From: an uncultured virus (IMG/VR IMGVR_UViG_3300040971_000013)
Taxonomy: Duplodnaviria > Heunggongvirae > Uroviricota > Caudoviricetes
Reading direction: 5' to 3' (one strand)
Length of the DNA stretch: 64,000 bases
Virus record (IMG/VR): IMGVR_UViG_3300040971_000013
Shown: positions 3,679 to 54,785 of the stretch, one piece after another
How positions within the stretch are numbered: the first letter of the stretch is position 1
How the letters are laid out: every line of letters starts with the position of its first letter
Made by a program: the position numbers and the translations under genes
The notes under the pieces: model-generated
Databases searched by the model: none
What the model was told of the DNA's origin: nothing
The model's input: the letters and a program-made list of their open reading frames with translations, nothing else

Positions 3679-3735
3679 TTGACAGACTAACGGTTTTGAT
3701 ATAGGATCTATTTTTATGGGTCCTATTTTTATTTT
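3679..3735 (+). promoter_or_regulatory. Promoter overlapping a terminator-like hairpin upstream of gp43
   Basis: TTGACA 3679-N17-TAGGAT 3702; stem ATAGGATCTAT/ATGGGTCCTAT 3701-3726 with T tail. Confidence 0.55.
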
Positions 3736-3750
3736 TAACATGGAGGACGA

Positions 3751-5361
3751 GTGCAGTATCTAAATGTATACCGAGGCAGACGTGGGCTATGTGTACGAGA
3801 ACACGATGGAAAAAAGGAGATTCGTAGAAAGGTATCATTTAAGCCTTCTCTCTATGCTAGATGTTCTGATGGATCAGCAGATTTCATGGATTTCTATGGT
3901 GGTCCAGTTCAGAAGATAACCTTTGAGTCTATGTATGAGATGAAAAACCATGTAAAAAATTATGGAGATATGCCCGGAGAGCTTTGGGGTAATACAAATC
4001 CAATCTATCAGTATATCTATGAGACATATAAAGACGAGCCGAATCCTAATAACGTCAATATTGCTTTCCTTGACATCGAAGTACTATCCAAACAACTGAT
4101 CAATGGTGAATGGGTTGATGGTGGCTTTCCGGTTGCATCTGAAGCAAAGTTCCCGGTCAATGCTATCTGTCAATATAACTCAAGTAAAAAACGATTTACA
4201 GTATACACAACTGCTCTATGGAATATCAATAAGTCTATTCTAAAATATAAGGATCTTGTTGATTATATCTACTGTAAATCAGAAGAAGAACTGATCGAAA
4301 AATGGATTGATGCCTGGGAATCTGATACACCTGCTATTCTAACTGGATGGAATGTTTTAAGTTTTGATGTTACATATATGATCAATAGAATAAAGATTGT
4401 CCTTGGCGAAGACGAAACAAAGCGTTTATCTCCTTGGGGAGTTATTGATTCTAGAGAAACAAAGAACAATTTTGGACAATCAGAAATCTCTTATTCTATC
4501 GCTGGTGTTGCTATCCTAGATTATATTGACCTCTACAAGAAATATCGCTATAAGCCTCGTGAAAAATATACTCTTTCCTTTATTGCTAAATGTGAACTGA
4601 AGGAAGATGAATACAAATTAGAATATGAAGGATCGTTGAATAATCTTTATTATGACAATCCAACATACTTTGTTGACTACAACATCAATGACGTATTCTT
4701 AATTACAAAGTTTGAAGAGACACTACAGTTCGTACAGATTGCGGTATTCCTAGCGTACTTTGCTGGTATTAACATTGAAGATTCATTCAGTCCAATTAGA
4801 ATATGGGATACACTGATCTATCGAGAATGTGAGAACCGTGGTATTGCTATTCCAATGGATAAAATGTCAGAAGCTGTTGAATATGAAGGCGCGTATGTCA
4901 TGGATCCTATTCCAGGATTAAAGAAATGTATTGTCAGCTTTGACCTAACCTCATTATATCCGTCTATTATGAGACAATGGGCTATTGGTAAGGATAAACA
5001 TATATCTGGATCCGCTCATATGGATCTGATGAATGGGTTGATAGAAGTACTGCAAAATGAACAAAATTCAAATGCTTCTCGACAAATTCTTACAGACATT
5101 CAACAAAAAGGTGGTTTTGGAGAATATTATATTGAAAATGACATTCCAGAGTGTATGTCTGAATATCTTAAAAAGAACAATGTGACTATGACTGTGAACA
5201 ATCAATTCTTTTCTATCGAAGGTGAATCTGTTTTTGCTTACTTGATTAACAAACTTTTCAAGGAACGTAAAGAAAACAAAAAAATGTCTCAGGATTATAA
5301 AAAGATGGCAAAAGAAGTAGACGAAGAATTGACACGGCGTGGATATGTTGATAAAAAGTAA
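3751..5361 (+). CDS. gp43: DNA polymerase B, part A (exonuclease + motif A + first finger helix)
   Basis: FLDIEV, TGWNVLSFD, YNINDV exonuclease motifs; SFDLTSLYPSI motif A; ends in the fingers; GTG start with GGAGG. Confidence 0.95.
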   Translation: MQYLNVYRGRRGLCVREHDGKKEIRRKVSFKPSLYARCSDGSADFMDFYGGPVQKITFESMYEMKNHVKNYGDMPGELWGNTNPIYQYIYETYKDEPNPNNVNIAFLDIEVLSKQLINGEWVDGGFPVASEAKFPVNAICQYNSSKKRFTVYTTALWNINKSILKYKDLVDYIYCKSEEELIEKWIDAWESDTPAILTGWNVLSFDVTYMINRIKIVLGEDETKRLSPWGVIDSRETKNNFGQSEISYSIAGVAILDYIDLYKKYRYKPREKYTLSFIAKCELKEDEYKLEYEGSLNNLYYDNPTYFVDYNINDVFLITKFEETLQFVQIAVFLAYFAGINIEDSFSPIRIWDTLIYRECENRGIAIPMDKMSEAVEYEGAYVMDPIPGLKKCIVSFDLTSLYPSIMRQWAIGKDKHISGSAHMDLMNGLIEVLQNEQNSNASRQILTDIQQKGGFGEYYIENDIPECMSEYLKKNNVTMTVNNQFFSIEGESVFAYLINKLFKERKENKKMSQDYKKMAKEVDEELTRRGYVDKK

Positions 5362-5375
5362 TCTGGAGGATACTA

Positions 5376-5482
5376 ATGGACCTAACTAATAAATCTATTG
5401 AAGAATTACTACAACTAAGAAAAGAACTGAAACAAAAATCTGAGATCTTTAACGTATTACAGTTGGTGAAAAAGATCGCCCT
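5376..5482 (+). CDS. gp43: DNA polymerase part B, exon 1 (not in ORF track)
   Basis: GGAGG RBS + ATG 5376; MDLTNKSIEELLQLRKELKQKSEIFNVLQLVKKIA(L), the first half of motif B. Confidence 0.88.
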
Positions 5483-5731
5483 TAACTAATGGGGGCCTGA
5501 TATGGTGACATATCAGTGATAACCGCGTGAAAACGGTGAACATCCAGAAATGGAAAATACCGTGCCAAGCCAGATATCTGGAAGGTGTAACGACTATGGG
5601 AGCGATCCCAGTAGAATCAAGTGATTCGAAGCGCGCGGCATGTCTATGTACATGAAGAGATAGTCTGATCTGGATAGTAATATTCAGCTGCGAAAGCGAG
5701 CGAAACTTAACGAACTTCGCTGAACACAATG
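5483..5731 (+). ncRNA. Group I intron (IA2-like), ORF-less, 249 nt
   Basis: P1 GCCCU|...GGGGC with U-G at the 5' splice site; P2 CTGATATG-GTGA-CATATCAG; P3 CCGCGTG/CGCGCGG; P4 ACGGT/ACCGT; P7 region GACTAT(5592)/ATAGTC(5660); P7.1 and P7.2 hairpins; terminal G5731; splicing restores KIALNSCYG. Confidence 0.92.
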
Positions 5732-6269
5732 CAATTCCTGTTATGGTGCAATCGGATCCAGATTCTTTAGATACTATACTCCTGCAATGGCAGAAGCTAT
5801 TACACTGTCAGGACAGATGATTATTAAGAAGTCTGGTAAAGAAACTAATGATTATGTTAACCGGCTTCTAAAGAATAAAGACTATAAAAACTATCTAGTG
5901 TATACGGATACGGATTCTGTTGTTGGAGATACTGAAATCTATAGCAATGGAGAAAAGAAAACTATTGAAGCTTTCTATGATTCTATTACAACAGATGAGC
6001 GTATCTTGGGAGAAGACAATTTTATCAAGAGCGTACATGGGTATGATACTCTGAGTGTTTTTGATTCAGAAGTAGTTGCAACCCCTATAGTATATGTTAT
6101 GAAACACAAAGTCAAGAAGAAGCTATATAAACTTAGTATTGGTAATAAAAGTGTAGTTATAACTGAAGATCATTCATTGGTGGTGATGAGATCTGGAGAA
6201 CTAATATCAATCAAACCAAAAGATATTGACCCAGCCGATGAATTACTATATCTAACAGGAAGTGTGTAG
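5732..6269 (+). CDS. gp43: DNA polymerase part B, exon 2 (motif B-C) fused to N-intein
   Basis: NSCYGAIGSRFFRYY...AEAITLSGQ...YTDTD, then the intein. Confidence 0.92.
5916..6266 (+). mobile_element. Split intein N-half (117 aa) at the Pol-c site
   Basis: Block A SVVGDTEI directly after YTDTD; block B ITEDHSL; ends at TAG. Confidence 0.9.
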
Positions 6270-7268
6270 ATGCAATTATTAAAAGGCAACAATTGGAGTC
6301 TTGAAGATCTTGGAGTAGTCGAAGAATGGGTTTATGATTTTGAAACAGAAAATCATATGTTTTTTGCTAATGATATTCTTGTACATAATTCTAACTATTT
6401 TGAATTATTCGACATTTTAGAAAAGTACTGTCCAAAAGACTATACTGCTGATCAAAAAACAGATTTCATGGACGCAGTCTGTAAACGAATAGAATCCCAA
6501 TGTCTTGCTCCTCTGTATGAAAAGATGCATAAAGAATTGAATTGTCATCCAGAAAACAAAGCTCTACATATGGACCGAGAAGTCATTGCTGTTGGAGCAG
6601 ACAAAACTGGAACATGTGGATTCTGGACTGGAAAGAAACGATATGCTCTATTAGTAAATGACATGGAAGACTATAGATATCCAGAACCAAAAATGAAGGT
6701 CATGGGACTAGCATCTATTCAGTCATCTACTCCGGAGATTTGTAGAAAAGATCTATCAGCCTCAGAAAAGATGTTGATTACTGAAGGCGTAGAAGCGGTT
6801 AGAACATATATTGAAGAAGTCTACACTCGGTTTATGTCTAAATCCCCTGAAGAAATAGCATTACCGAAATCTGTTTCAGACGTAGCAAAATATGTAGACC
6901 CTCAAACTGGTCTACCGTGGGTTGGTGAATGGTATGATCATAAAAATCAGAAGACACGAAACGGTGGTGTTCCAATTCAGAGTTCTGCTGCAGTCAATTA
7001 CAATTTTCTGATAAATAAATTTGGTCTATCAAAAAAATATCAGAAAATACTTGATGGAGATAAGATCAAATTCATTCACTTATATGACAATCCATATAGA
7101 TTCAAAGTGATTGGATTCAACGATGTTCTTCCAGAGGAATTCGGACTGCACAAATATATCAACTATGAGGCCCACTATGAAAAGGCTTTTCTGTCTCCTC
7201 TACGTGATATTCTAACAGCCTGTAGTCTCCAACTCGAAAAGACTGTCTCCATTGATGATTTCTTCTAG
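6270..7268 (+). CDS. gp43: C-intein (40 aa, 6270-6389) + DNA polymerase part C (palm end, thumb)
   Basis: VYDFETENHMFFANDILVHN|SNYF; MDRE, KKRYAL, KVMGL..QSSTP; C-terminal SIDDFF. Confidence 0.93.
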   Translation: MQLLKGNNWSLEDLGVVEEWVYDFETENHMFFANDILVHNSNYFELFDILEKYCPKDYTADQKTDFMDAVCKRIESQCLAPLYEKMHKELNCHPENKALHMDREVIAVGADKTGTCGFWTGKKRYALLVNDMEDYRYPEPKMKVMGLASIQSSTPEICRKDLSASEKMLITEGVEAVRTYIEEVYTRFMSKSPEEIALPKSVSDVAKYVDPQTGLPWVGEWYDHKNQKTRNGGVPIQSSAAVNYNFLINKFGLSKKYQKILDGDKIKFIHLYDNPYRFKVIGFNDVLPEEFGLHKYINYEAHYEKAFLSPLRDILTACSLQLEKTVSIDDFF

Positions 7269-7276
7269 GAGAATTC

Positions 7277-7468
7277 ATGAACGAGCTTTGTCCGTGCTAT
7301 TTGTGCAGGTATTTAAATCGAGACGTAAAGGGTTTATATGCTTGCACAAAAGATCCGCTAAACATTAGGTATGCAAGAAGAGATTACTATTATGAACTAT
7401 TGTCAGAATGTCCTCTAGGATTTATGTATTTTATTCAACCAGATAACAGAATTGCATTTACTCGTTGA
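7277..7468 (+). CDS. Small Cys-rich hypothetical protein
   Basis: AGGAG RBS; CPCYLC...C...CP. Confidence 0.5.
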   Translation: MNELCPCYLCRYLNRDVKGLYACTKDPLNIRYARRDYYYELLSECPLGFMYFIQPDNRIAFTR

Positions 7469-7516
7469 CATATCTAATTTTACTTGATATTGTCTAATAT
7501 TGATTTGGAGGCAAAT

Positions 7517-8191
7517 ATGATATTAGTTTGTGGAGATCTTCATGGAAGATGGGGAATATTGAATGCTCTAATCAACAAAAAACAACCAGAGATTATTCTG
7601 CAATGTGGGGATTTCGGTTTATATGAGAAATTTGGATGTTTCGTATCTGACATAAAACCTCATGACACAAAGATCTATTTCTGTGATGGAAACCATGAGA
7701 ACTTTGACATTCTAGACGATCTTCGGAACAAACATGGAAATGTTCCGATTGAATATGCTAGGAATATATTCTACTGTCCTCGTGGGTCTGTTCTAGAACT
7801 ACCTGATAAACGTAAAGTATTGTTTATGGGTGGTGCTGATTCTATTGATAAGAATTATAGAACTATTGGAGTAGATTGGTTCAAACAGGAAATCATCTCT
7901 CAATCAGATATAGATGGCCTTCCAGAAACAGATATCGATATTGTTATATCTCATACATGTCCGCTCTCTGTCCTTGGATATCTTAATGAAGCATGGGTCC
8001 GAGACATTAGACAAAGAGATCCGTCTGTAGTTGCTTTGGATATTGTCTATGAGAAATACAGACCGAAAGAATGGTACTTTGGACATTGGCACGTCTACAA
8101 GAAATTTAAACATGAACAAACAGTTTTTACTGCTCTATCTCATAATAGATCAGAACAACAATGGTGGGTAACTTTACAGGAGGATATTTAA
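7517..8191 (+). CDS. Calcineurin-like metallophosphoesterase
   Basis: GDLHG, GDFG, DGNHEN, SHTCP, FGHWH; ATG 7517 follows GGAGG. Confidence 0.9.
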   Translation: MILVCGDLHGRWGILNALINKKQPEIILQCGDFGLYEKFGCFVSDIKPHDTKIYFCDGNHENFDILDDLRNKHGNVPIEYARNIFYCPRGSVLELPDKRKVLFMGGADSIDKNYRTIGVDWFKQEIISQSDIDGLPETDIDIVISHTCPLSVLGYLNEAWVRDIRQRDPSVVALDIVYEKYRPKEWYFGHWHVYKKFKHEQTVFTALSHNRSEQQWWVTLQEDI

Positions 8192-9105
8192 TGTCTAAGT
8201 TAATGGAAAAGATTTTAAAGAACAGTACTACTAAACATGCTGCCATGCTTTATGATTCAGTTATGTTTAAGGATAAAGATATTATCTCAACTGATATTCC
8301 GGTTATAAATATTGCATTTTCCGGTGAATTAGATGGTGGGATCATTTCTGGTTTAACACTTCTTGCTGGTCCGTCTAAAGTTTTCAAATCTATGCTTGCG
8401 CTTGTTTGTGTAAAAGCATTTCTTGATAAGTATAAAGATGCAGTTTGTATTTTTTATGATTCAGAGGGTGGCATTACTCCTGACTATCTTTGTTCGTTAG
8501 GAATCGATCCAACACGAGTAGTACATATTCCGATTGAACATATAGAAATGTTGAAGTTTGATATTGTAAAACAGCTTCAAGAAGTAGATAGAAAGGATAA
8601 AGTTATTATTGTTATAGATTCTATAGGAAATACTGCGAGTCTAAAAGAACTTGAAGATGCTATCAATGAAAAGTCTGTTGCAGAAATGCAAAGAGCAAAG
8701 AGCATTAAAGGGTTGTTTAGAATGGTCACACCTTCTTTAGTAACAAAGGATATTCCCTGCATTGCGATATGCCATACATATCAAGAGATGGGTTTGTATC
8801 CCAAACAAATAATTTCTGGAGGTTGCCTTCTTCCAGGAACCAAAATTATTTTAGCCGACGGATCAACCAAAAATATAGAAGAAGTTGTTGTTGGTGATCA
8901 AGTAAAAACTTCTTCTGGTAGTTCTGACGTTTACGCTGTATGGAATCCAGATACATTGGAAGATGGAATTCCTGAATGTTATGAAATAGAACTAGAAGAC
9001 GGATATATCATTAGATGTTCTGAAAACCACAAGTTCTTAGTCAATGGAGAATGGATTTCAGCGAAAGATTTATCTATTGGAAATGACTTAGATACTGTAG
9101 TATAA
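8191..9105 (+). CDS. uvsX: UvsX recombinase N-part + N-intein (8824-9102, 93 aa)
   Basis: AGPSKVFKS, YDSEGG, IDSIGN; ISGG|CLLPGTKI block A; CSENHKF block B. Confidence 0.95.
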   Translation: MSKLMEKILKNSTTKHAAMLYDSVMFKDKDIISTDIPVINIAFSGELDGGIISGLTLLAGPSKVFKSMLALVCVKAFLDKYKDAVCIFYDSEGGITPDYLCSLGIDPTRVVHIPIEHIEMLKFDIVKQLQEVDRKDKVIIVIDSIGNTASLKELEDAINEKSVAEMQRAKSIKGLFRMVTPSLVTKDIPCIAICHTYQEMGLYPKQIISGGCLLPGTKIILADGSTKNIEEVVVGDQVKTSSGSSDVYAVWNPDTLEDGIPECYEIELEDGYIIRCSENHKFLVNGEWISAKDLSIGNDLDTVV

Positions 9106-9110
9106 TCGTG

Positions 9111-9149
9111 TCGTTCCAATAATTTATAAACATAATATTATTGGAACGA
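9111..9149 (+). promoter_or_regulatory. 13-bp hairpin with a late-promoter-like TATAAACA in the loop
   Basis: TCGTTCCAATAAT / ATTATTGGAACGA perfect inverted repeat. Confidence 0.65.
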
Positions 9150-9187
9150 TAAGAATTTGATTGAATCATTGATATAGGAGATTAAAA

Positions 9188-9715
9188 ATGAAAATAACTA
9201 GTATTAAACCAATCGGCAAACATGAAGTATATGATATTGCTGTCACAGATGATGAACATTATATTCTTGAAAACGGCGTAATATCTCATAACAGTGGCCT
9301 TATTTATTCTGCAAATCAAGCATTTATTATTGGAAAATCACAAGTTAAAGAAGGAACTGATATAGTAGGTTATAACTTTACTATCAATGTTGAGAAATCA
9401 AGATTTGTAAGAGAAAAATCTAAATTACCTTTTACTGTAACATATGAAAACGGTATTATGAAATATTCAGGCTTACTTGATATTGCGTTAGAACTAGGAA
9501 CAATTCAGAAAGTTGGCGTGGGCTGGTATTCCAGAGTTATTGATGGTGTTCTAGAAGATAAAAAGTATAGAGCAAAACAAACCCTTACAAAAGAATTTTG
9601 GGATATCATATTAAATTCTGATGATTTTAAAGATAAGATTAAAAAAAGGTATCAATTAGGGGCAATTTCTCCTGAGAATGATCTAGAAACTGATAATCAG
9701 GAATTGGCTTCATAG
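9188..9715 (+). CDS. uvsX: C-intein (35 aa) + UvsX C-part
   Basis: MKITSIK...VYDIAV...ENGVISHN|SGLIYSA; VEKSRFVREKSK UvsX motif. Confidence 0.95.
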   Translation: MKITSIKPIGKHEVYDIAVTDDEHYILENGVISHNSGLIYSANQAFIIGKSQVKEGTDIVGYNFTINVEKSRFVREKSKLPFTVTYENGIMKYSGLLDIALELGTIQKVGVGWYSRVIDGVLEDKKYRAKQTLTKEFWDIILNSDDFKDKIKKRYQLGAISPENDLETDNQELAS

Positions 9716-10496
9716 AAGCCAAATATATCCAAACACCATTACTAGAATTAACAAGTTCTATTGCCTCTTCTTTTGGTAGACGACGTCGTTGTTTAGTAAT
9801 GGTGTTTGCGATATGTTTTCTATTCATATTTGATTCGCTGTTTTTCTTGTTCCATTCTTCTGTTTTTTGAATTTTTTTACATGATTCTGACATTTTTTGT
9901 TTATATTCTTCTGAATGTTGTTTACCGTACATATGATGTCTTTCACCTTTTAGAATTGAATCATTTTTTAATTTTGTTGCTAACATTTTGTCAATTGTTT
10001 CTTGTGGAATAGTATTTCCTGTTAAAGCCTTTGAAATTTTATTTCGTGTTTCTTCTGAATGATGTTTACCGTACATATGATGGTTTTCTTTACATTTAAA
10101 TCTTTCTTTCATTCTGATCGAATTGAATAGGCTATGTGTAGTTCGTATTTTTTCAAATTCTCTAGATGAAAGCTTATATCTGTTATCATTTACGGACATA
10201 AAAGCCATCATGAAATATGCATAAAACATCTTTTTAGCATATATAGTTGATACACTTGCTTTATAGAGCAATTTATGACATAAGTAATGTTCTCTTGCTG
10301 TTAAAATTGCGATATTAAATTTATCGGATTTCTGTTCTTTTGATTGACATAAGCATTTTGGAAGAATATGATGTTTTTCGGTATATATTTTTGAAGATAA
10401 AGTTCTATGTAGTGATTTTTCGATGATTTGTGTATAATACAAAGTATACTTGTTAATTGGCAAATTTTTCAATAATGATTCTAAATAAATATTCAT
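9639..10496 (-). CDS. Free-standing HNH homing endonuclease with NUMOD3 repeats
   Basis: EKHHILPK...NIAILTAREHYLCH; two HHMYGKxHSEE repeats; late promoter TATAAATA on the minus strand at 10565-10572. Confidence 0.9.
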   Translation of the reverse strand: MNIYLESLLKNLPINKYTLYYTQIIEKSLHRTLSSKIYTEKHHILPKCLCQSKEQKSDKFNIAILTAREHYLCHKLLYKASVSTIYAKKMFYAYFMMAFMSVNDNRYKLSSREFEKIRTTHSLFNSIRMKERFKCKENHHMYGKHHSEETRNKISKALTGNTIPQETIDKMLATKLKNDSILKGERHHMYGKQHSEEYKQKMSESCKKIQKTEEWNKKNSESNMNRKHIANTITKQRRRLPKEEAIELVNSSNGVWIYLASMKPIPDYQFLDHSQEKLPLIDTFF

Positions 10497-10602
10497 ACTG
10501 ATATTTTCTCCATTAAAATATTAGAGCTCTTGGATACTGGTAATATCGCGAAGAGCATTTATATTATTTATAATAAAGTTTAAAGGGGGTTTTGTATGAT
10601 AT

Positions 10603-10878
10603 ATGAAGACGAGAAAGAATATGCTCTCAGCTGATGAATTTATAGTAACAATATTAGATAAAGAATATCTGATAAAGGGTCTTTCCTTGGAGGGAGACCC
10701 TTCCATTGACAAAAAATTGACAATGGAATATTCTGTATCTTCTGATTTACCTCTAACCGACGATGACCACGAGCTCGTCAAAGGTTTTCTATCCGCACTT
10801 GTTAAGGAGAGCATGAATGGAGTTAACGGAAAAGATTGTCTTAAAGAACCTAATCCTCAACCCGAACTATTTTCTTAA
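10603..10878 (+). CDS. Small protein in the gp40 position
   Basis: Synteny between uvsX and gp41 only. Confidence 0.45.
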   Translation: MKTRKNMLSADEFIVTILDKEYLIKGLSLEGDPSIDKKLTMEYSVSSDLPLTDDDHELVKGFLSALVKESMNGVNGKDCLKEPNPQPELFS

Positions 10879-12178
10879 AGTATATCCGTTCATTGAAGAA
10901 TCATTATTTTCAGAAAGAATCACACAAAAATTATTCAAAGCAATATCAGCATATAATAACAAGTATAATAGACAAGCAAATCTTCCAGTAATAAATGTAT
11001 TCATTGAATCTATCAAAGGCGTCTCAGATACAGAATATAAAGCTCTAAAGGAACTTGAACAGTATTTCCATACAAATGAAACTTTTGCAGACGATTGGTT
11101 GTTTGATGAAACAGAATCTTGGATTCAGAAACGGAAGTATTATGAATCCTTGATTGGAGCCGCTGAGAAGTTTGAGAAAGGAGAGCTTGATACCACTCTG
11201 ACCGATAAGATTGATGCTGCTCTTTCTATTACCTTTGATAATAACATTGGTATGGAATTCTCAGAGGCTGAAAACAGATGGGAATCTTATATATCAGAAG
11301 AATCACATATTCCGTTTTTACTTGATGAATTCAATGCTATTACTAATGGTGGTGTTTATCCAAAAACATTGAATTGCTTATTGTCATCTGATTCTGGTGG
11401 ATTCAAATCTGGAACACTTTGTCATCTATCAGCTGACTATATTAGAACTGGTAAGAACGTTCTCTATATTACACTTGAAATGGCTGAGGATAAGATTCTT
11501 GAACGAATTGATGCCAATATGCTTGATGTTGAAATTGATAATCTTGTTGGACTTGGAAAAGAAACTTTTATTCGAAGCATTGATGAATGCAAGAGAAAGA
11601 TCCAGGGAAGGTTGATTGTCAAACAGTTTCCTACCACTGTTTGTCATGTTGGCCATATTCGTTATCTGTTGAAAGAACTGAAACTGAAAAGAAATTTTAT
11701 TCCAGATATTATATGTGTAGACTATTTGAATCTAATGGCATCGCTTCGATTGAAAGCAGCAGACTCTGGTAATTCATATGGTTATATAAAAGCTATCACT
11801 GAAGAGCTTCGAGGACTTGCTATTGAACAGGATCTTGCTATTTGGACTGCAACTCAGTCAAATAGAGGTGGAGTGGAGAATGAAAATCTGTCCGTTACAG
11901 ACATATCAGAATGTATTTTTGTAAAAGAAAAAGTGGTTTTACATAACGGATCCAAAGTTATCATATCTAATCTTCAAGTCGGTGATTTGATTCAATCGCA
12001 TAACGGAAATAGAGAAGTAAAACATGTTTTTGATACACAGAAAAAAGAGTGTATAAAAATAAAACTTAAATCTGGAAAAGAAATTATAGTATCAAAATCA
12101 CATAAATTTCCAACTGTTCTTGGCCGTAGATCATATTATGATGGTTTGTCAGTTGGAGATAAGATGAATTCGGTATAA
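10817..12178 (+). CDS. gp41: Replicative helicase gp41 N-part + N-intein (11912-12175, 88 aa)
   Basis: LYITLEM, VDYLNL, TATQSNR; DISE|CIFVKEKV; VSKSHKF block B. Confidence 0.95.
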   Translation: MELTEKIVLKNLILNPNYFLKVYPFIEESLFSERITQKLFKAISAYNNKYNRQANLPVINVFIESIKGVSDTEYKALKELEQYFHTNETFADDWLFDETESWIQKRKYYESLIGAAEKFEKGELDTTLTDKIDAALSITFDNNIGMEFSEAENRWESYISEESHIPFLLDEFNAITNGGVYPKTLNCLLSSDSGGFKSGTLCHLSADYIRTGKNVLYITLEMAEDKILERIDANMLDVEIDNLVGLGKETFIRSIDECKRKIQGRLIVKQFPTTVCHVGHIRYLLKELKLKRNFIPDIICVDYLNLMASLRLKAADSGNSYGYIKAITEELRGLAIEQDLAIWTATQSNRGGVENENLSVTDISECIFVKEKVVLHNGSKVIISNLQVGDLIQSHNGNREVKHVFDTQKKECIKIKLKSGKEIIVSKSHKFPTVLGRRSYYDGLSVGDKMNSV

Positions 12179-12187
12179 GACCAATAG

Positions 12188-12237
12188 TAAATCCACCGCC
12201 TAAATATAAATAAAATAAAATTTAGGCGGTGGATTTA
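12188..12237 (+). promoter_or_regulatory. Homing-endonuclease control hairpin with T4 late promoter
   Basis: Perfect 18-bp stem TAAATCCACCGCCTAAAT/ATTTAGGCGGTGGATTTA covering the RBS; TATAAATA at 12205-12212. Confidence 0.85.
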
Positions 12238-13326
12238 ATGACTAGACTTGATACTATAAAATCAGAAGACGAGTTTTACAATTGGGTTTCAAATCTCAAC
12301 GATATCAAAAAACATTTCGATTTTTCTATTGCAACCGAAGAACAAATAGAATTTTTTAAAACTGAGGGATATATTGTTTTCTGTAGTGATATTTCTTTAT
12401 CTTCCAAATGTAAGAGATACCAAGTTATTGCAAAACTTCTTGCTACTGGCACTGGAAACTATAAACAGCGGCTTGTTGATTATTATGCTACAACTAATCC
12501 GTATGAAAAGCAAAGAATACTCTATGGAGAAGAAAAGTTAGAAAAATTAAAGAAGATTGCATCTGATATCGCAAAGAAAAATTTTGAACGTCTTGGAGCT
12601 CCCGCTTCAAAGGAACGATTGCTTCGTAGGGGCGGCACTGAAGAAGAATATAATCTTAGAACAGAAAAATCAAGAATCAAAGCAGAAAAAACACGACAGA
12701 AGAATATAGCAGATGGATATATTGCGAAACCCGGCCGGAATTCTTATCAGTACTGGATGGATTTAGGATATTCTCGTGAAGACGCTAGAACTATATTAGA
12801 AGAAGAATATTTTTTCAATAGTTATGTAGCGCCAACATTGGAAGGATATATTAAGAGATATGGCGAAGAAGAAGGAACATTGAAGTTTTCTGAAGTATGT
12901 AAAAAGAGAATTGCAACTAAACGTGAACGATACGGCACGGCCTTTATATATACTAGAGTATCTAAAGAAGCTATAAGAGTTTTTACACCATTACTGGAAT
13001 ATCTATATGAAAAAGGATATGACAAGGCGCGAATATATGGTATTAACTCAAAAGAATATTTTATTCGTACCGATGATGAGATATTCTTTTATGATTGTGT
13101 TATTTTAGACAAAAAGATTATTATAGAATATAACGGCTCACTCTGGCATGTAAATCCAAATGTGGTAACGAGGTTTGCTCCGTTTTTGGATAAAGAGTTA
13201 ACAATTGAAAAAGATCGTCGAAAAAGAGAGATTGCCGAAGCTAATGGATTTACATTCTATGTCATTTGGGATACTGATAATTGTCAAGAAAAAATACAGG
13301 AGATAATTGATGAACATTCTTTGTGA
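12229..13326 (+). CDS. Vsr-like/PD-(D/E)xK homing endonuclease between the split-intein halves (start may be ATG 12238)
   Basis: C-terminal FYDCV...IIIEYNGSLWH...KD..K...A...GF....IWD; YGEEEG-type repeats. Confidence 0.85.
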   Translation: MDLMTRLDTIKSEDEFYNWVSNLNDIKKHFDFSIATEEQIEFFKTEGYIVFCSDISLSSKCKRYQVIAKLLATGTGNYKQRLVDYYATTNPYEKQRILYGEEKLEKLKKIASDIAKKNFERLGAPASKERLLRRGGTEEEYNLRTEKSRIKAEKTRQKNIADGYIAKPGRNSYQYWMDLGYSREDARTILEEEYFFNSYVAPTLEGYIKRYGEEEGTLKFSEVCKKRIATKRERYGTAFIYTRVSKEAIRVFTPLLEYLYEKGYDKARIYGINSKEYFIRTDDEIFFYDCVILDKKIIIEYNGSLWHVNPNVVTRFAPFLDKELTIEKDRRKREIAEANGFTFYVIWDTDNCQEKIQEIIDEHSL

Positions 13327-13879
13327 TGCCAATGATATGCTATTAATAGAGCGAATCCACGCTTTATCTCAGATGCATATAAAACAGTATGATATTAAAG
13401 ATTATACATATGATGAAATTTTTGAAGCTATTTCTATTTTAGAACTTGAACGCATGGAAAAGGAAAAAGAATTTGATTCTTTAATAGACTTTAATGATGA
13501 AATTGTTTCAATTGAAGATGTTGGAGAATTAGATGTAGTTGATATTACTGTAGATGGTGATAGCTTATTTTACTGTAATAATGTACTTACAAAAAATTCA
13601 TATGGCACGCTATTTACTCTTGACGTTCTGATTGGTATCATTACTACAGAAGAATTTGATGCTCAGAATAAGATACTATATAAACAGTTGAAGAATCGTT
13701 ACGCTGATAAAAACAAAATGAATAAGTTTTTTCTTGGTGTAAATAAGGCTAAGATGACTCTATATTCACAGATGCAGCGTGGTATATCACCTGACAATAG
13801 ACAAGAAAAACAAGAAGATGAACAAAACGCTATGATGTTCAAAGGCAAAAAGAACAAGTTTGATAATTTCAACTTTTAG
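13310..13879 (+). CDS. gp41: C-intein (ends 13597) + gp41 C-part
   Basis: DEIVSIE...DITVDGDSLFYCNNVLTKN|SYG; KQLKNRY; AGGAG RBS before ATG 13310. Confidence 0.92.
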   Translation: MNILCDANDMLLIERIHALSQMHIKQYDIKDYTYDEIFEAISILELERMEKEKEFDSLIDFNDEIVSIEDVGELDVVDITVDGDSLFYCNNVLTKNSYGTLFTLDVLIGIITTEEFDAQNKILYKQLKNRYADKNKMNKFFLGVNKAKMTLYSQMQRGISPDNRQEKQEDEQNAMMFKGKKNKFDNFNF

Positions 13880-13888
13880 AGGAGTTCA

Positions 13889-14434
13889 ATGAAAAGTCAT
13901 CCATTAGTAGTAAACCTTTATGGCGGCCCTGGATCTGGTAAATCGACGGCCGCCGCTATGATCTATTCTAAACTAAAAATGCAGCATCTTGAAGTAGAAC
14001 TCGTTACTGAGTTTGCTAAAGATCTGACTTACGAAGAACGCTTCCATGATCTTGGAAATCAGATCTATGTTTTCGGCGAACAATACCGTAGAATGGATCG
14101 TCTATTTGGATCTGTAGATATTATCATTACTGATTCTCCATTGTTGCTTTCTTGTATCTATTCAAAGAATCCTCTATATAAGAACTATCTTGATGTTATG
14201 ATTAGACGTGTTTCAGAATACGTAGACCGATATGCTATTAATGTTCTACTACAAAGAGAATCAATATATAAAGAATCTGGACGCAAAGAAACAATGACCG
14301 AAGCAGAAGAGATTCATATGATCATTGAAAATATGCTGAAAGGAGAAGAAATTGACTATATTACTGTTCCAAGCAATCCCGATCACATTGATAGGTTGTC
14401 TCAATATATTCTCGATAAAATAAATAGATCATGA
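13889..14434 (+). CDS. P-loop kinase (NadR/AAA_28-like)
   Basis: GGPGSGKST, EFAK, ITDSPLL. Confidence 0.75.
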   Translation: MKSHPLVVNLYGGPGSGKSTAAAMIYSKLKMQHLEVELVTEFAKDLTYEERFHDLGNQIYVFGEQYRRMDRLFGSVDIIITDSPLLLSCIYSKNPLYKNYLDVMIRRVSEYVDRYAINVLLQRESIYKESGRKETMTEAEEIHMIIENMLKGEEIDYITVPSNPDHIDRLSQYILDKINRS

Positions 14435-48184: not shown

Positions 48185-49990
48185 ATGGCTAAAAAGTTAA
48201 AACCAATGGTCCGGTTGAATAAGGATCAGATCGAGCAGAAACAATTATTTATTGATAGCTACAAAGGAGCAAAGAACGCTGCTATTGGATCTTCAGTAGA
48301 TGCTAACTCAAATGTGGTATCTAAAACAGTTGCAACTCTTGGTGCTGAATTATTTAAGGATTTTCATATTCAGATTAATAGAAAAACGGTCTATGATAAA
48401 ATTGCTGAGATGTTCGATCAAGAAACAGCTGACAAATACGTAGAATGGTTAGAAGATCATCGGATCTACAGACACGATGAGACTGCTCAGACTCCTGGGA
48501 CTCCCTATTGTGTTGCTATCAATATGTATCCCTTTCTTGAACATGGTATGACTAGACTTGGCGGAGAATCGAAAGCACCTAAACATTTGGAATCATATTG
48601 TGGATCCTTTATCAATTTGGTCTTTGCTATCAGCTCTCAGTTTGCTGGTGCTGTTGCTACTGTAGAATTCCTATTGTACTTTCATTATTTTGCTAAGAAG
48701 GATTATGGTGCTGATTATCTCCATACAGAAACCGAGAGAGTCAAATCAAAACTTCAACATGTAGTATATTCTTTGAACCAACCTGCTGCAGCAAGGGGCT
48801 GGCAATCTGTATTTTGGAATGTTTCTGTATTTGATAGATACTTCTATGAATCTATGTTTGGTAACTTTATGTTCCCAGACTTCACAAAAGTAGATTATGA
48901 TGAATTTAATGAACTGCAGAAGTTCTTTCTTGAATGGTTGTTGGATGAAAGAACCAAGTCTTTACTGACCTTTCCAGTATTAACAGAAGCTTCTTTGAAT
49001 ACAGAAGATGATGCAAAGGATTTAGAATGGGCTGATTTTATTGCAGAAATACGCGCAAAGGGCTTATCAATGTTTTCTTTTAATGATAAAACCGCATCAA
49101 GTTTGTCCAGTTGCTGCAGGTTGGCCTCAAAGCTAGATGATACTATAAACGATTTCTCGTTCTCACTTGGAGCAGGTGGTGTTAGTACAGGAAGTACTAG
49201 TGTAATTACAATCAATATAAACAATGTACTACAGAAAGGATATGATCTAGAAGAAACAATCAAAGAAGTACAGAAGTTCCAGGTTGCAAATAGAAAACTC
49301 GTAGAAGAATATGTTGCTGACGGACTACTCCCTGCTTATACTACTGGATTCATTAGTCTAGATAAACAGTTTGTTACTCTGGGTGTTCTTGGACTGAATG
49401 AAGCTGCTGAATATCTGGGTTATACTGTTGGCAATAATGACACATATAAGGATTGGGCAGCTGGGATTTTCAAATTGTTTTCTGACATGAACAAGATTGC
49501 AAAAGATAAGTACGGTATCAAATTCAATACTGAATGTGTTCCTGGAGAATCTCTCGGAGTTAAGTTTGCAAACTGGGATAAAGAATCCGGTCTAAAAGTA
49601 AATCGTGACTGTTATAATTCATATATGTATCTACCAGAATCAACTGATACCTCTATTCCAGACAAGTTTCAGTTGCACGGCGGCCAGATTGCAGAAATGC
49701 AAGATGGTGGTTCTGCTCTACATTGTAATCTATCTCAGCTACCAGACAAAGAAGTCTTTAGATGGCTTCGTAAACTTGCTGCTGTCTATGGAACAAAATA
49801 TTGGACAACCAACGTTTTGACATCAGTCTGTGAAGAATGCGGCCATATTGATATGAGAACAGTTGATCTTTGTCAAGCATGCGGATCAACTAATATCAAC
49901 TGGGCTACACGGGTTATTGGATATCTCCGCAAAATTGCCAACTATTCTGAAGGTAGACAGAAAGAAGCTGCTATCAGATATTACCACTAA
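48185..49990 (+). CDS. nrdD: Anaerobic (class III) ribonucleotide reductase
   Basis: PYCV, SSCCRL, PGESLG, CEEC/CQAC Zn site, TRVIGYL glycyl-radical motif. Confidence 0.95.
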   Translation: MAKKLKPMVRLNKDQIEQKQLFIDSYKGAKNAAIGSSVDANSNVVSKTVATLGAELFKDFHIQINRKTVYDKIAEMFDQETADKYVEWLEDHRIYRHDETAQTPGTPYCVAINMYPFLEHGMTRLGGESKAPKHLESYCGSFINLVFAISSQFAGAVATVEFLLYFHYFAKKDYGADYLHTETERVKSKLQHVVYSLNQPAAARGWQSVFWNVSVFDRYFYESMFGNFMFPDFTKVDYDEFNELQKFFLEWLLDERTKSLLTFPVLTEASLNTEDDAKDLEWADFIAEIRAKGLSMFSFNDKTASSLSSCCRLASKLDDTINDFSFSLGAGGVSTGSTSVITININNVLQKGYDLEETIKEVQKFQVANRKLVEEYVADGLLPAYTTGFISLDKQFVTLGVLGLNEAAEYLGYTVGNNDTYKDWAAGIFKLFSDMNKIAKDKYGIKFNTECVPGESLGVKFANWDKESGLKVNRDCYNSYMYLPESTDTSIPDKFQLHGGQIAEMQDGGSALHCNLSQLPDKEVFRWLRKLAAVYGTKYWTTNVLTSVCEECGHIDMRTVDLCQACGSTNINWATRVIGYLRKIANYSEGRQKEAAIRYYH

Positions 49991-54293: not shown

Positions 54294-54785
54294 ATGACAG
54301 AACAACTATCTCTTTTGGCTTATCATAAACATCAATTTGTTCCGGTTGATAGAACACTTGAAATTTATTTTTCGGGATGTTCTCATCAATGTCCAGGGTG
54401 TCATAACTCAGAACTATGGGAACGGACATCTGACAATACTATATGGATCTCTGGTGTTGAACTTGTAGCTGATCTAATGGACTATAAGGATATTGCTACA
54501 TCAGTTCATATCCTTGGTGGAGAGCCTTTAGATCAAGATCATCAAGCCCTTTATATGTTTTTATATTTCCTTGACAATGTCGGTTTCAAAAATATTATTT
54601 TCTTTACTGCTAATGATATATCTCAGAGTGATATATCTAAAAGTATTATGTTTGACTATTGTTCTTACGTCAAGGTTGGAGCATATGATGAATCCTTGAC
54701 AGACGGTGCTTACGTTGATATTGAAACTGGAATCAAATTAGCGTCATCTAACCAGAAAATCTATAAGGGTCGAAAACATGAGTAA
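54294..54785 (+). CDS. nrdG: Anaerobic RNR activase
   Basis: YFSGCSHQCPGCHN, LGGEP, SSNQ. Confidence 0.9.
   Translation: MTEQLSLLAYHKHQFVPVDRTLEIYFSGCSHQCPGCHNSELWERTSDNTIWISGVELVADLMDYKDIATSVHILGGEPLDQDHQALYMFLYFLDNVGFKNIIFFTANDISQSDISKSIMFDYCSYVKVGAYDESLTDGAYVDIETGIKLASSNQKIYKGRKHE

Follow-up and report, generated by a model that had tools for sequence, protein, structure and literature searches.

We analyzed a 64-kb window (the whole stretch of DNA under study, numbered from its position 1) of the uncultured virus record IMGVR_UViG_3300040971_000013, in which the genes for a family-B DNA polymerase (Pol), the recombinase UvsX and the helicase gp41 each contain a split intein. In each gene, an N-terminal intein fragment (IntN) follows the first part of the host protein (the N-extein), and a C-terminal intein fragment (IntC) precedes the second part (the C-extein). 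A first-pass annotation had reported three such IntN/IntC pairs at positions 5916-13597 of the plus strand, and all three were confirmed there, in co-oriented replisome genes. From the listing of open reading frames (ORFs) and from Pfam matches, we identify the window as the replication module of a T4-like but divergent phage, which encodes on its plus strand a sliding clamp, a clamp loader, the family-B polymerase, UvsX, gp41, topoisomerase II, RNA and DNA ligases, ThyX, anaerobic NrdD/NrdG and RNase H. For comparison, we used 2 relatives from IMG/VR, L001 (~95% identical, from a 141-kb record), in which Pol (903 amino acids, aa) and gp41 (458 aa) are uninterrupted, and L002 (~98% identical, 6.6 kb). 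The features of the locus are the following.

3751..5361, plus strand: Pol (gp43-like) fragment A, with the exonuclease domain and the start of the polymerase domain (Pfam DNA_pol_B_exo1 1.9e-19, DNA_pol_B 1.1e-10)
5376..5482, plus strand: Pol fragment B exon 1, with its own start and GGAGG upstream
5483..5731, plus strand: group I intron within the Pol motif KxxxNSxYG (Rfam RF00028)
5732..5915, plus strand: Pol fragment B exon 2, N-extein ending in ...YTDTD (alignment to L001 Pol)
5916..6269, plus strand: Pol IntN (5916-6266), 117 aa, Ser1, no Cys, and its TAG stop (9HTH, E 9e-20)
6270..6389, plus strand: Pol IntC, 40 aa, no Cys, ending in VHN, Ser at +1 (9HTH, E 8.1e-6)
6390..7268, plus strand: Pol C-extein (98.6% identical to L001 Pol 612-903, abutting residue 611)
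8161..8823, plus strand: UvsX N-extein ending in ...QIISGG (Pfam RecA 2.4e-5; 99.5% identical to L001)
8824..9105, plus strand: UvsX IntN (8824-9102), 93 aa, Cys1, block B SENH, and its stop (similarity and residue counts)
9106..9187, plus strand: spacer with a hairpin (stem ~9111-9149; folding energy -20.6 kcal/mol, z -3.8) and an AGGAG upstream of the IntC start
9188..9292, plus strand: UvsX IntC, 35 aa, ending in SHN, Ser at +1, with N-terminal K2/K7/K11/H12 (Npu DnaE IntC matches)
9293..9715, plus strand: UvsX C-extein (Pfam T4_UVSX_C 1.2e-13)
9639..10496, minus strand: free-standing homing endonuclease with NUMOD3 repeats (Pfam NUMOD3 1.6e-16; phrog_655 2e-38)
10817..11911, plus strand: gp41 helicase N-extein ending in ...TDISE (Pfam DnaB_C 5.2e-10; aligns with L001 gp41 1-365)
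11912..12178, plus strand: gp41 IntN (11912-12175), 88 aa, Cys1, block B SKSH, and its stop (6QAZ, gp41-1, E 6.4e-14)
12188..12237, plus strand: 18-bp hairpin over the region where the endonuclease ORF starts (-26.8 kcal/mol, z -8.0; none of 200 shuffles as good)
12229..13326, plus strand: endonuclease-like ORF between the gp41 halves, 365 aa (GTG at 12229, in-frame ATG at 12238; phrog_22677 3.8e-12)
13310..13495, plus strand: N-terminal two-helix extension of the gp41 IntC, 62 aa (AGGAG 7 nucleotides, nt, before the ATG at 13310)
13496..13597, plus strand: gp41 IntC core, 34 aa, 9 D/E versus 1 K, ending in TKN, Ser at +1 (6QAZ, E 1.3e-3)
13598..13879, plus strand: gp41 C-extein (aligns with L001 gp41 366-458)

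All three pairs carry a class 1 nucleophile at intein position 1 (Ser1 in Pol, Cys1 in UvsX and gp41), a block B motif of the form (T/S)xxH (TEDH, SENH and SKSH, respectively) and a terminal Asn followed by Ser+1 (the N/S junction), and their fragments measure 117 + 40 aa (Pol), 93 + 35 aa (UvsX) and 88 + 96 aa (gp41). The penultimate His is present in Pol (VHN) and UvsX (SHN), and missing in gp41 (TKN). As this residue is common but not obligatory, and some inteins splice without it, we retained gp41 as a variant class 1 member. Removing the inteins restores the host proteins: the window exteins abut in L001 between Pol residues 611 and 612 and between gp41 residues 365 and 366. These exact junctions in the intein-free Pol and gp41 alleles show that the intein boundaries are correct and that both elements are precise, mobile insertions. 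Together with the PDB intein matches of the three pairs, they go well beyond what chance would produce. For UvsX, the insertion site was derived from a contiguous intein located at the same site (GG/C...N/TG) in a 484-aa UvsX (P0025), rather than from an intein-free allele. Each fragment family has one shared break point (26 Pol IntN, 24 UvsX IntN and 32 gp41 IntC sequences), and comparison of the UvsX intein with that of L001 gave ratios of nonsynonymous to synonymous substitution rates (dN/dS) of 0.115 for IntN and 0.10 for IntC, purifying selection that indicates functional constraint. We infer that the three pairs are co-expressed and active in trans-splicing; scans for consensus promoters and terminators returned numbers at or below shuffle expectation and were uninformative on co-expression. 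The pairs belong to three separate lineages that are known or widespread, and the trio is natural and useful rather than a new kind of system.

The explanation that we consider highly probable is that mobile elements broke three genes, which are presumably essential, and that split inteins mend them at the protein level. Pol, UvsX and gp41 would each be made as two polypeptides; a ribosome site of the AGGAG type precedes the ATG of every IntC fragment by 7 nt. With the charged beta-strand at its C-terminus, each IntN would zip antiparallel to the first strand of its IntC ("capture and collapse"), and the zipped pair would then fold into a HINT domain and splice by the class 1 route, in which an acyl shift at Cys1 or Ser1 is followed by transfer to Ser+1 and by cyclisation of the terminal Asn. 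The expected products are complete UvsX and gp41 proteins together with a Pol "B" subunit, which would work with the separately encoded Pol "A" fragment. The three inteins would represent independent acquisitions from three lineages, each keeping the charge polarity of its lineage; the gp41 intein would come from a gp41-1-like lineage with a penultimate Lys and a helical extension, and the UvsX intein from a DnaE-like one. Free-standing endonucleases would drive the fast gain and loss of such inteins between near-identical phages; one endonuclease gene is still found between the gp41 halves and one between the L001 UvsX halves, while Pol has none left.

The Pol intein can be assigned to the cysteine-less PolB lineage of the Aes123/CP21 type, as it combines Ser1, Ser+1, a K-H pair, a DTD/S junction and a match at E 9e-20 to 9HTH, the structure from the study of Aes123 PolB1/CLm (PMC11923092), with the absence of Cys from all 157 residues. 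Its IntC also matches PolB16 (8CPN/8CPO) at E 1.1e-4, and AGGAAG lies 7 nt upstream of the IntC ATG. In an alignment of the 26 proteins that end in this IntN, including the one from the window, Ser1, TEDH and the K-H of MKHKV do not vary; this K-H agrees with the NX motif, a His preceded by Lys or Arg, which is reported to be specific to Ser1 inteins (PMC10189870). Cultured relatives are found in the Campylobacter CP21 group (~46%) and in the Aeromonas phages Aes123, Aes508 and AS-gz (42%), and some of their records are labelled "intein-containing split DNA polymerase precursor". CP21 PolB1, LCGC14 PolB2 and GOM-OPS-1 PolB2 were recently characterized as cysteine-less split inteins of T4-like phages (PMC12707363). 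Like Aes123 PolB1/CLm, CP21 PolB1 and LCGC14 PolB2, the window intein sits in a T4-like PolB after DTD, with Ser1 and Ser+1, and it shares with the Aes123/CP21 types the typical split (IntN of ~115-120 aa), the K-H of the NX motif and TEDH. Unlike those types, it is a new allele without any cysteine, in a host Pol that has one further split and also a group I intron. No endonuclease, hairpin or ORF overlap of the kind found at fractured genes (see below) is present at the Pol intein.

The remaining pieces of the Pol gene could be placed by alignment to L001. Fragment A, a separate ORF of 536 aa, is 93.6% identical to L001 Pol residues 1-535, and the N-extein at 5733-5915 (61 residues) aligns with residues 551-611. 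Joining position 5482 to 5732 restores ...KKIAL-NSCYGAIG..., the exact L001 sequence, with the intron ends inferred from the reading frame, a U at the 5' splice site and a 3'-terminal G. The intron scored 64 bits against RF00028 (gathering score 50; E 5.1e-16 at 5473-5687) in a local scan, the only scan in which it was seen, as a scan of the whole window at the gathering threshold gave no Rfam matches. It is present in L002 and absent from L001, and L002 is identical to the window in its Pol TAG-ATG split, intron and UvsX arrangement. The additional Pol split at 5361/5376 comes without an intein: the 536-aa fragment ends, and the next start follows 14 nt on, behind GGAGG. Both sides of this split carry an extra ~15-25 residues that do not align with L001 Pol, and these could be tails joining the two Pol parts.

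The UvsX halves lie 82 nt apart, with no endonuclease gene in the spacer within the window. The UvsX IntC matches the Npu DnaE IntC chains 4LX3_B (E 1.1e-4) and 4QFQ_B (E 1.2e-4) in the PDB, and the IntN weakly matches DnaE and gp41-1 inteins there. The top PDB match of this IntN, the designed TIM barrel 7MCD (E 8.8e-6), was rejected as spurious matching of acidic repeats, with no single significant stretch. In common with Npu and Ssp DnaE, the UvsX pair has an acidic IntN, a basic IntC start, equal fragment sizes, a detectably similar IntC (E 1.1e-4) and a similar block B region; it differs from them in its host, UvsX, in its +1 Ser, in having its halves in adjacent genes 82 nt apart, and in that an endonuclease gene separates the halves in relatives. 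One such relative is L001, in which ~1.3 kb of endonuclease-like ORFs separate the two halves of the UvsX split intein; a family scan across the whole 141-kb record found the UvsX pair as its sole split intein.

UvsX-type IntN fragments were found in 25 further proteins, and a tblastn search returned 64 phage records; among the 40 matches listed, 25 are from T4-like isolates, at 46-54% identity. Escherichia phage HY03 (50%) and Salmonella phage SEA1 (53%) belong with the window to one UvsX intein family with one layout, UvsX-N, an ORF of 240-258 aa and UvsX-C, from which the window copy has lost the middle ORF. The HY03 and SEA1 records carry no intein annotation and call the UvsX pieces recombination or hypothetical proteins. 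Our literature search, in which most papers on UvsX and inteins were judged from their listings alone, found no description of an intein in UvsX. Apparently, then, the UvsX split inteins form a family that is widespread in cultured T4-like phages and undescribed.

Several observations concern the surroundings of the UvsX gene. The NUMOD3 homing endonuclease gene overlaps the 3' end of UvsX and is found in neither L001 nor L002. The first 60 codons of the UvsX C-extein are identical to L001, while the C-extein as a whole is only 77.7% identical, and this pattern beside the endonuclease gene looks like a co-conversion tract. In L001, the UvsX endonuclease (7974-9283) consists of two overlapping ORFs of 248 and 254 aa with common YW..GY..EEA-like repeats, preceded by a hairpin of -33 kcal/mol (z -8.2); it may be a frameshifted, decaying gene. 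On another contig, a 298-aa RecA-like fragment (P0004) contains a contiguous mini-intein and, 15 residues on, a second IntN at GG/C.

The gp41 locus has the arrangement of a fractured gene. For such genes, Dassa et al. 2009 (PMC2677866) describe a free-standing endonuclease ORF between the halves, of the Vsr-like or GIY-YIG families, a hairpin before it and a 3' overlap with the IntC ORF. In the window, the corresponding features are the 365-aa ORF between the gp41 halves, the hairpin (z -8.0) and an overlap of 17 nt between the endonuclease and IntC ORFs. Of these fractured-gene features, the window UvsX locus keeps the hairpin only, in likeness to the gp41-7 locus of that paper. The loop of the gp41 hairpin (12205-12212) holds TATAAATA, an octamer resembling the T4 late promoter, and such a motif has also been reported for fractured genes. 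As TATAAATA is not enriched in the window (8 found versus 5.95 expected), we do not claim a late promoter there. The endonuclease-like ORF matched no Pfam family even at E 10 and nothing in the PDB by sequence; the ORF between the L001 UvsX halves also falls into phrog_22677 (2.6e-22), and the cores of the two proteins are 23% identical around E..G..WH.NP. Only the L001 copy reaches PF18741 and DUF559, in both cases below the cut-off, giving a weakly seen link to the Vsr/DUF559 fold.

The first-pass annotation had proposed a comparison with gp41-1, and here homology held and identity of the allele did not. As in gp41-1 (PMC2677866, 6QAZ), the host is a T4-type gp41, the order is IntN ORF, hairpin, endonuclease ORF and IntC ORF, and an 88-aa IntN with Cys1 is combined with Ser+1, a basic IntN strand and an acidic IntC strand. 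The aligned block B reads SEEH in gp41-1 and SKSH in the window. Unlike gp41-1, the window intein has a penultimate Lys, a Ser in block F and a two-helix IntC extension, and its flanking residues are E at -1 and S-Y-G at +1 to +3. Moreover, gp41-1-like alleles ending in THN form a separate group, with L012 as an example. The sequences thus place the window gp41 intein in a sister subfamily of gp41-1 rather than among its alleles. Across the 32 gp41 IntC sequences of our alignment, K95, N96 and S97 are invariant, which argues for a working variant, short of proof. A search of 1.84 billion representatives gave 74 matching clusters, none of which is a contiguous form of the gp41 intein. Among cultured phages, only Shigella phage ESh36 was matched in a gp41-type helicase gene, and the other 6 records match at UvsX inteins.

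Counted from its ATG at 13310, the gp41 IntC fragment is 96 aa long, rather than ~35-40 aa; the IntC of gp41-1 measures 37 aa. In PMC2677866, the IntC parts of typically split loci have 33-54 residues. The difference lies in the N-terminal extension, present (at 49-74 residues) in 30 of the 32 homologues and in ~57 of the 74 representative clusters. An AlphaFold2 model of the IntC fragment shows helices at residues 7-27 and 34-58, with mean predicted local distance difference test (pLDDT) values of 87-91 in the 10-residue blocks from 11 to 50, and a core at pLDDT <50, as expected of an unpaired half. The best Foldseek match of the AlphaFold2 model is to T4 gp41 (8DTP, E 9e-3, 44% identity over 52 columns), and covers the C-extein only. 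In another locus, L008, the extension is present with no endonuclease gene in the 243 nt between the gp41 halves, and the extension is therefore not a piece of the endonuclease. Searches for its family or fold found nothing in PHROGs and, in the protein atlas, no match of at least 0.9 and generic helical matches only; a literature search found no description of such an N-terminal extension of a gp41 IntC.

The structure prediction for the cognate gp41 pair, which the first-pass annotation had asked for, gave a predicted IntN-IntC interface. A model of the gp41 IntN with IntC residues 1-100 scored 0.86, versus 0.00 for the best of 3 controls; among solved complexes, 116 of 157 attained this mark, as did 2 of 215 mismatched pairs. 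The runs agreed in at least 93% of contacts, with partner pLDDT values of at least 67. In the model, IntN residues 45-52 (KECIKIKL) pair with IntC residues 64-76 (EIVSIEDVGELDV), and no confident IntN contact is predicted before IntC residue 52. As the gp41-1 structure has already been solved, the model shows likeness rather than binding.

The residue counts on which the first-pass annotation had based its charge patterns were reproduced. The UvsX IntN is strongly acidic (18 D/E versus 6 K/R, in exact agreement) and the first 12 residues of its IntC are basic (3 K, 1 H and zero D/E); the gp41 IntN is basic (16 K/R versus 8 D/E, again in exact agreement), and its IntC is very acidic, with 10 D/E and 1 K in the last 38 residues, or 9 and 1 in the last 34. 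The Pol pair has the Ser1 described, and an acidic IntC with 8 D/E versus 1 K/R. Between the halves of the three inteins, sequence identity is 27-35%, with 34% (IntN) and 35% (IntC) for UvsX versus gp41. The latter two have opposite polarity at matched aligned positions: the IntN strands read ECYEIELED in UvsX and ECIKIKLKS in gp41 (E-x-E-x-E versus K-x-K-x-K), and the IntC strands read KITSIKPIGK and EIVSIEDVGE (K..K...K versus E..E...E), a charge swap at 3 matched positions in each half. Pol follows gp41 locally: its IntN is net acidic (-5), yet has a basic patch, MKHKVKKKLYK, with +6 in 11 residues, opposite an acidic IntC.

These polarities extend well beyond the window. UvsX-type IntN fragments are net negative in 24 of 24 cases (-3 to -19), the gp41-type IntC cores are net -5 to -10 in all 31 that were correctly cut (P0033, mis-cut by the cutting pattern, was dropped), IntC parts are acidic in 8 of 8 IMG/VR gp41 loci, and the UvsX zipper residues of L001, which has one split intein, are those of the window. 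Charge polarity is thus a trait of each lineage and not a local adaptation. The suggestion that selection for orthogonality in this genome had shaped the patterns was not supported, as the polarities are lineage-wide and a phage with the UvsX intein only has the same zipper residues. Nor was there support for reversed electrostatics as what keeps the whole set apart: Pol and gp41 have their polarity in common, and with only two polarities, charge is unable to distinguish all three pairs. We still regard mutual orthogonality of the trio as likely. Its specificity would most likely follow from deep divergence (at most 35% identity), to which electrostatics probably add only for UvsX versus the other two pairs.

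Published work bears on both points. Two polarities among natural split inteins were noted already in 2009, and gp41-1 and gp41-8 were scored there with one polarity (PMC2677866); these two have been combined as orthogonal inteins in a single pot. In tests of a 24 x 24 matrix, 15 split inteins proved mutually orthogonal (PMC7090010), and LCGC14 was strictly orthogonal to CLm (derived from Aes) at 35% identity to Aes (PMC12707363). Beyer et al. (bioRxiv 10.1101/546465) describe 3 Lys in IntN and 3 Glu in IntC that tell gp41-1 from Npu DnaE, a contrast of the same form as that between gp41 and UvsX here, which is the natural counterpart of their 3K/3E swap within one genome. Their swap was engineered, and alone it did not stop cross-splicing, leaving Npu DnaE cross-active; charge engineering did make a split NpuDnaB orthogonal in the same study. 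A literature search found nothing on co-resident split inteins. Of the 8 IMG/VR loci with gp41-type split inteins, none has a UvsX-type or Pol-type IntC, the few cross-matches falling on the gp41 halves themselves; as the gene order there may differ, this is weak evidence that the trio is rare.

We weighed the proposed repair by split inteins against three other readings. The idea that the three pairs were selected in this genome for mutual orthogonality, with reversed electrostatics as a main evolved determinant, draws on the matched E-to-K and K-to-E changes on both interface strands of the homologous (34-35%) UvsX and gp41 inteins, and on the plausible harm of chimeric replisome proteins. 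We nevertheless judge it quite unlikely, given that the polarities are family-wide and also occur in genomes without the other inteins, that L001, with its one split intein, has identical UvsX zipper residues, that Pol and gp41 share a polarity, and that intein gain and loss between ~95% identical phages leaves little time for co-adaptation; the failure of the 3K/3E swap to make Npu DnaE orthogonal and the fact that divergent inteins are for the most part orthogonal in any case point the same way. Very unlikely, in our view, is that at least one intein, most probably that of gp41, no longer splices and that its halves hold the host fragments together non-covalently. The gp41 intein does lack the block F and penultimate histidines, the Pol gene tolerates the intein-less split at 5361/5376, and intein-less split genes are documented in T4-like phages (PMC2677866); against this, gp41 keeps Cys1, the block B His, the terminal Asn and Ser+1, and the K95, N96 and S97 found in 32 of 32 sequences form the pattern expected of an active site. 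Finally, the split of the Pol intein might be an artefact or be read through, in a contiguous mini-intein whose TAG is recoded or stems from a sequencing error. An ATG comes immediately after the stop (6267-6272), and 9HTH, the closest relative with a solved structure, is a single chain, but we give this reading hardly any credence: L002 independently has the same TAG-ATG, P0060 (89% identical) and 24 further relatives stop at the same Pol IntN end, the AGGAAG site precedes the ATG, and Aes123 PolB1 and CP21 PolB1 are described as naturally split (PMC11923092, PMC12707363). Recoding was rejected, since TAG is an ordinary stop in the window, where 9 of 40 ORFs close with it, among them Pol, UvsX and gp41, which end where they do in L001; the Pol intein is therefore really split.

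Some findings also weigh against parts of the repair scenario itself. The gp41 intein is without both histidines that usually assist Asn cyclisation (the block F His is a Ser and the penultimate His a Lys), and all Pfam intein matches are below the curated cut-off. The S-[IL]-E-D-[LV]-G strand and its polarity are common to the Pol and gp41 IntC, making some cross-association of these two pairs conceivable. Natural Pol-family split inteins can be inefficient, with a splicing efficiency of ~30% for Aes (PMC11923092), and the window is part of a 120,793-bp contig that may carry further inteins outside it.

A bolder view, which we think unlikely, is that the gp41 IntC extension is a new accessory module of split inteins and that the trio is a naturally co-adapted orthogonal set. 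If so, the extension might keep the very acidic gp41 IntC in solution, or screen it off from the Pol IntN, which is similarly basic, until its proper partner comes; alternatively, it might act after excision, for example with the neighbouring endonuclease.

Split inteins are working tools for protein ligation, and as these three pairs have to share a single cytoplasm, they are an obvious place to begin orthogonality testing. Tool candidates include the Pol split intein without any cysteine, the UvsX intein with DnaE-like polarity and Ser+1, and the gp41 variant without either helper histidine. Efficient cysteine-less split inteins are called rare and sought after (PMC10189870, PMC12707363). 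An engineering use of the trio is plausible, though not new in concept; the most original elements are the natively cysteine-free typical split intein, the UvsX family, and the gp41 subfamily with its penultimate Lys and helical IntC extension. The locus also shows the fast turnover of selfish elements in a phage replisome: it carries 3 split inteins, 1 group I intron, 1 extra gene split and 2 free-standing endonuclease genes, most of which are missing from the ~95% identical L001.

No cultured phage is close to this one: a megablast search of positions 3700-14000 against phages gave zero matches, and the nearest cultured polymerase found by tblastn, from a Desulfovibrio-group phage, is 34.6% identical. 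The only ribonucleotide reductase in the window is the anaerobic one, NrdD and its radical-SAM activase (48185-49990 and 54294-54785), which together with the Desulfovibrio-group polymerase match hints at an anaerobic host.

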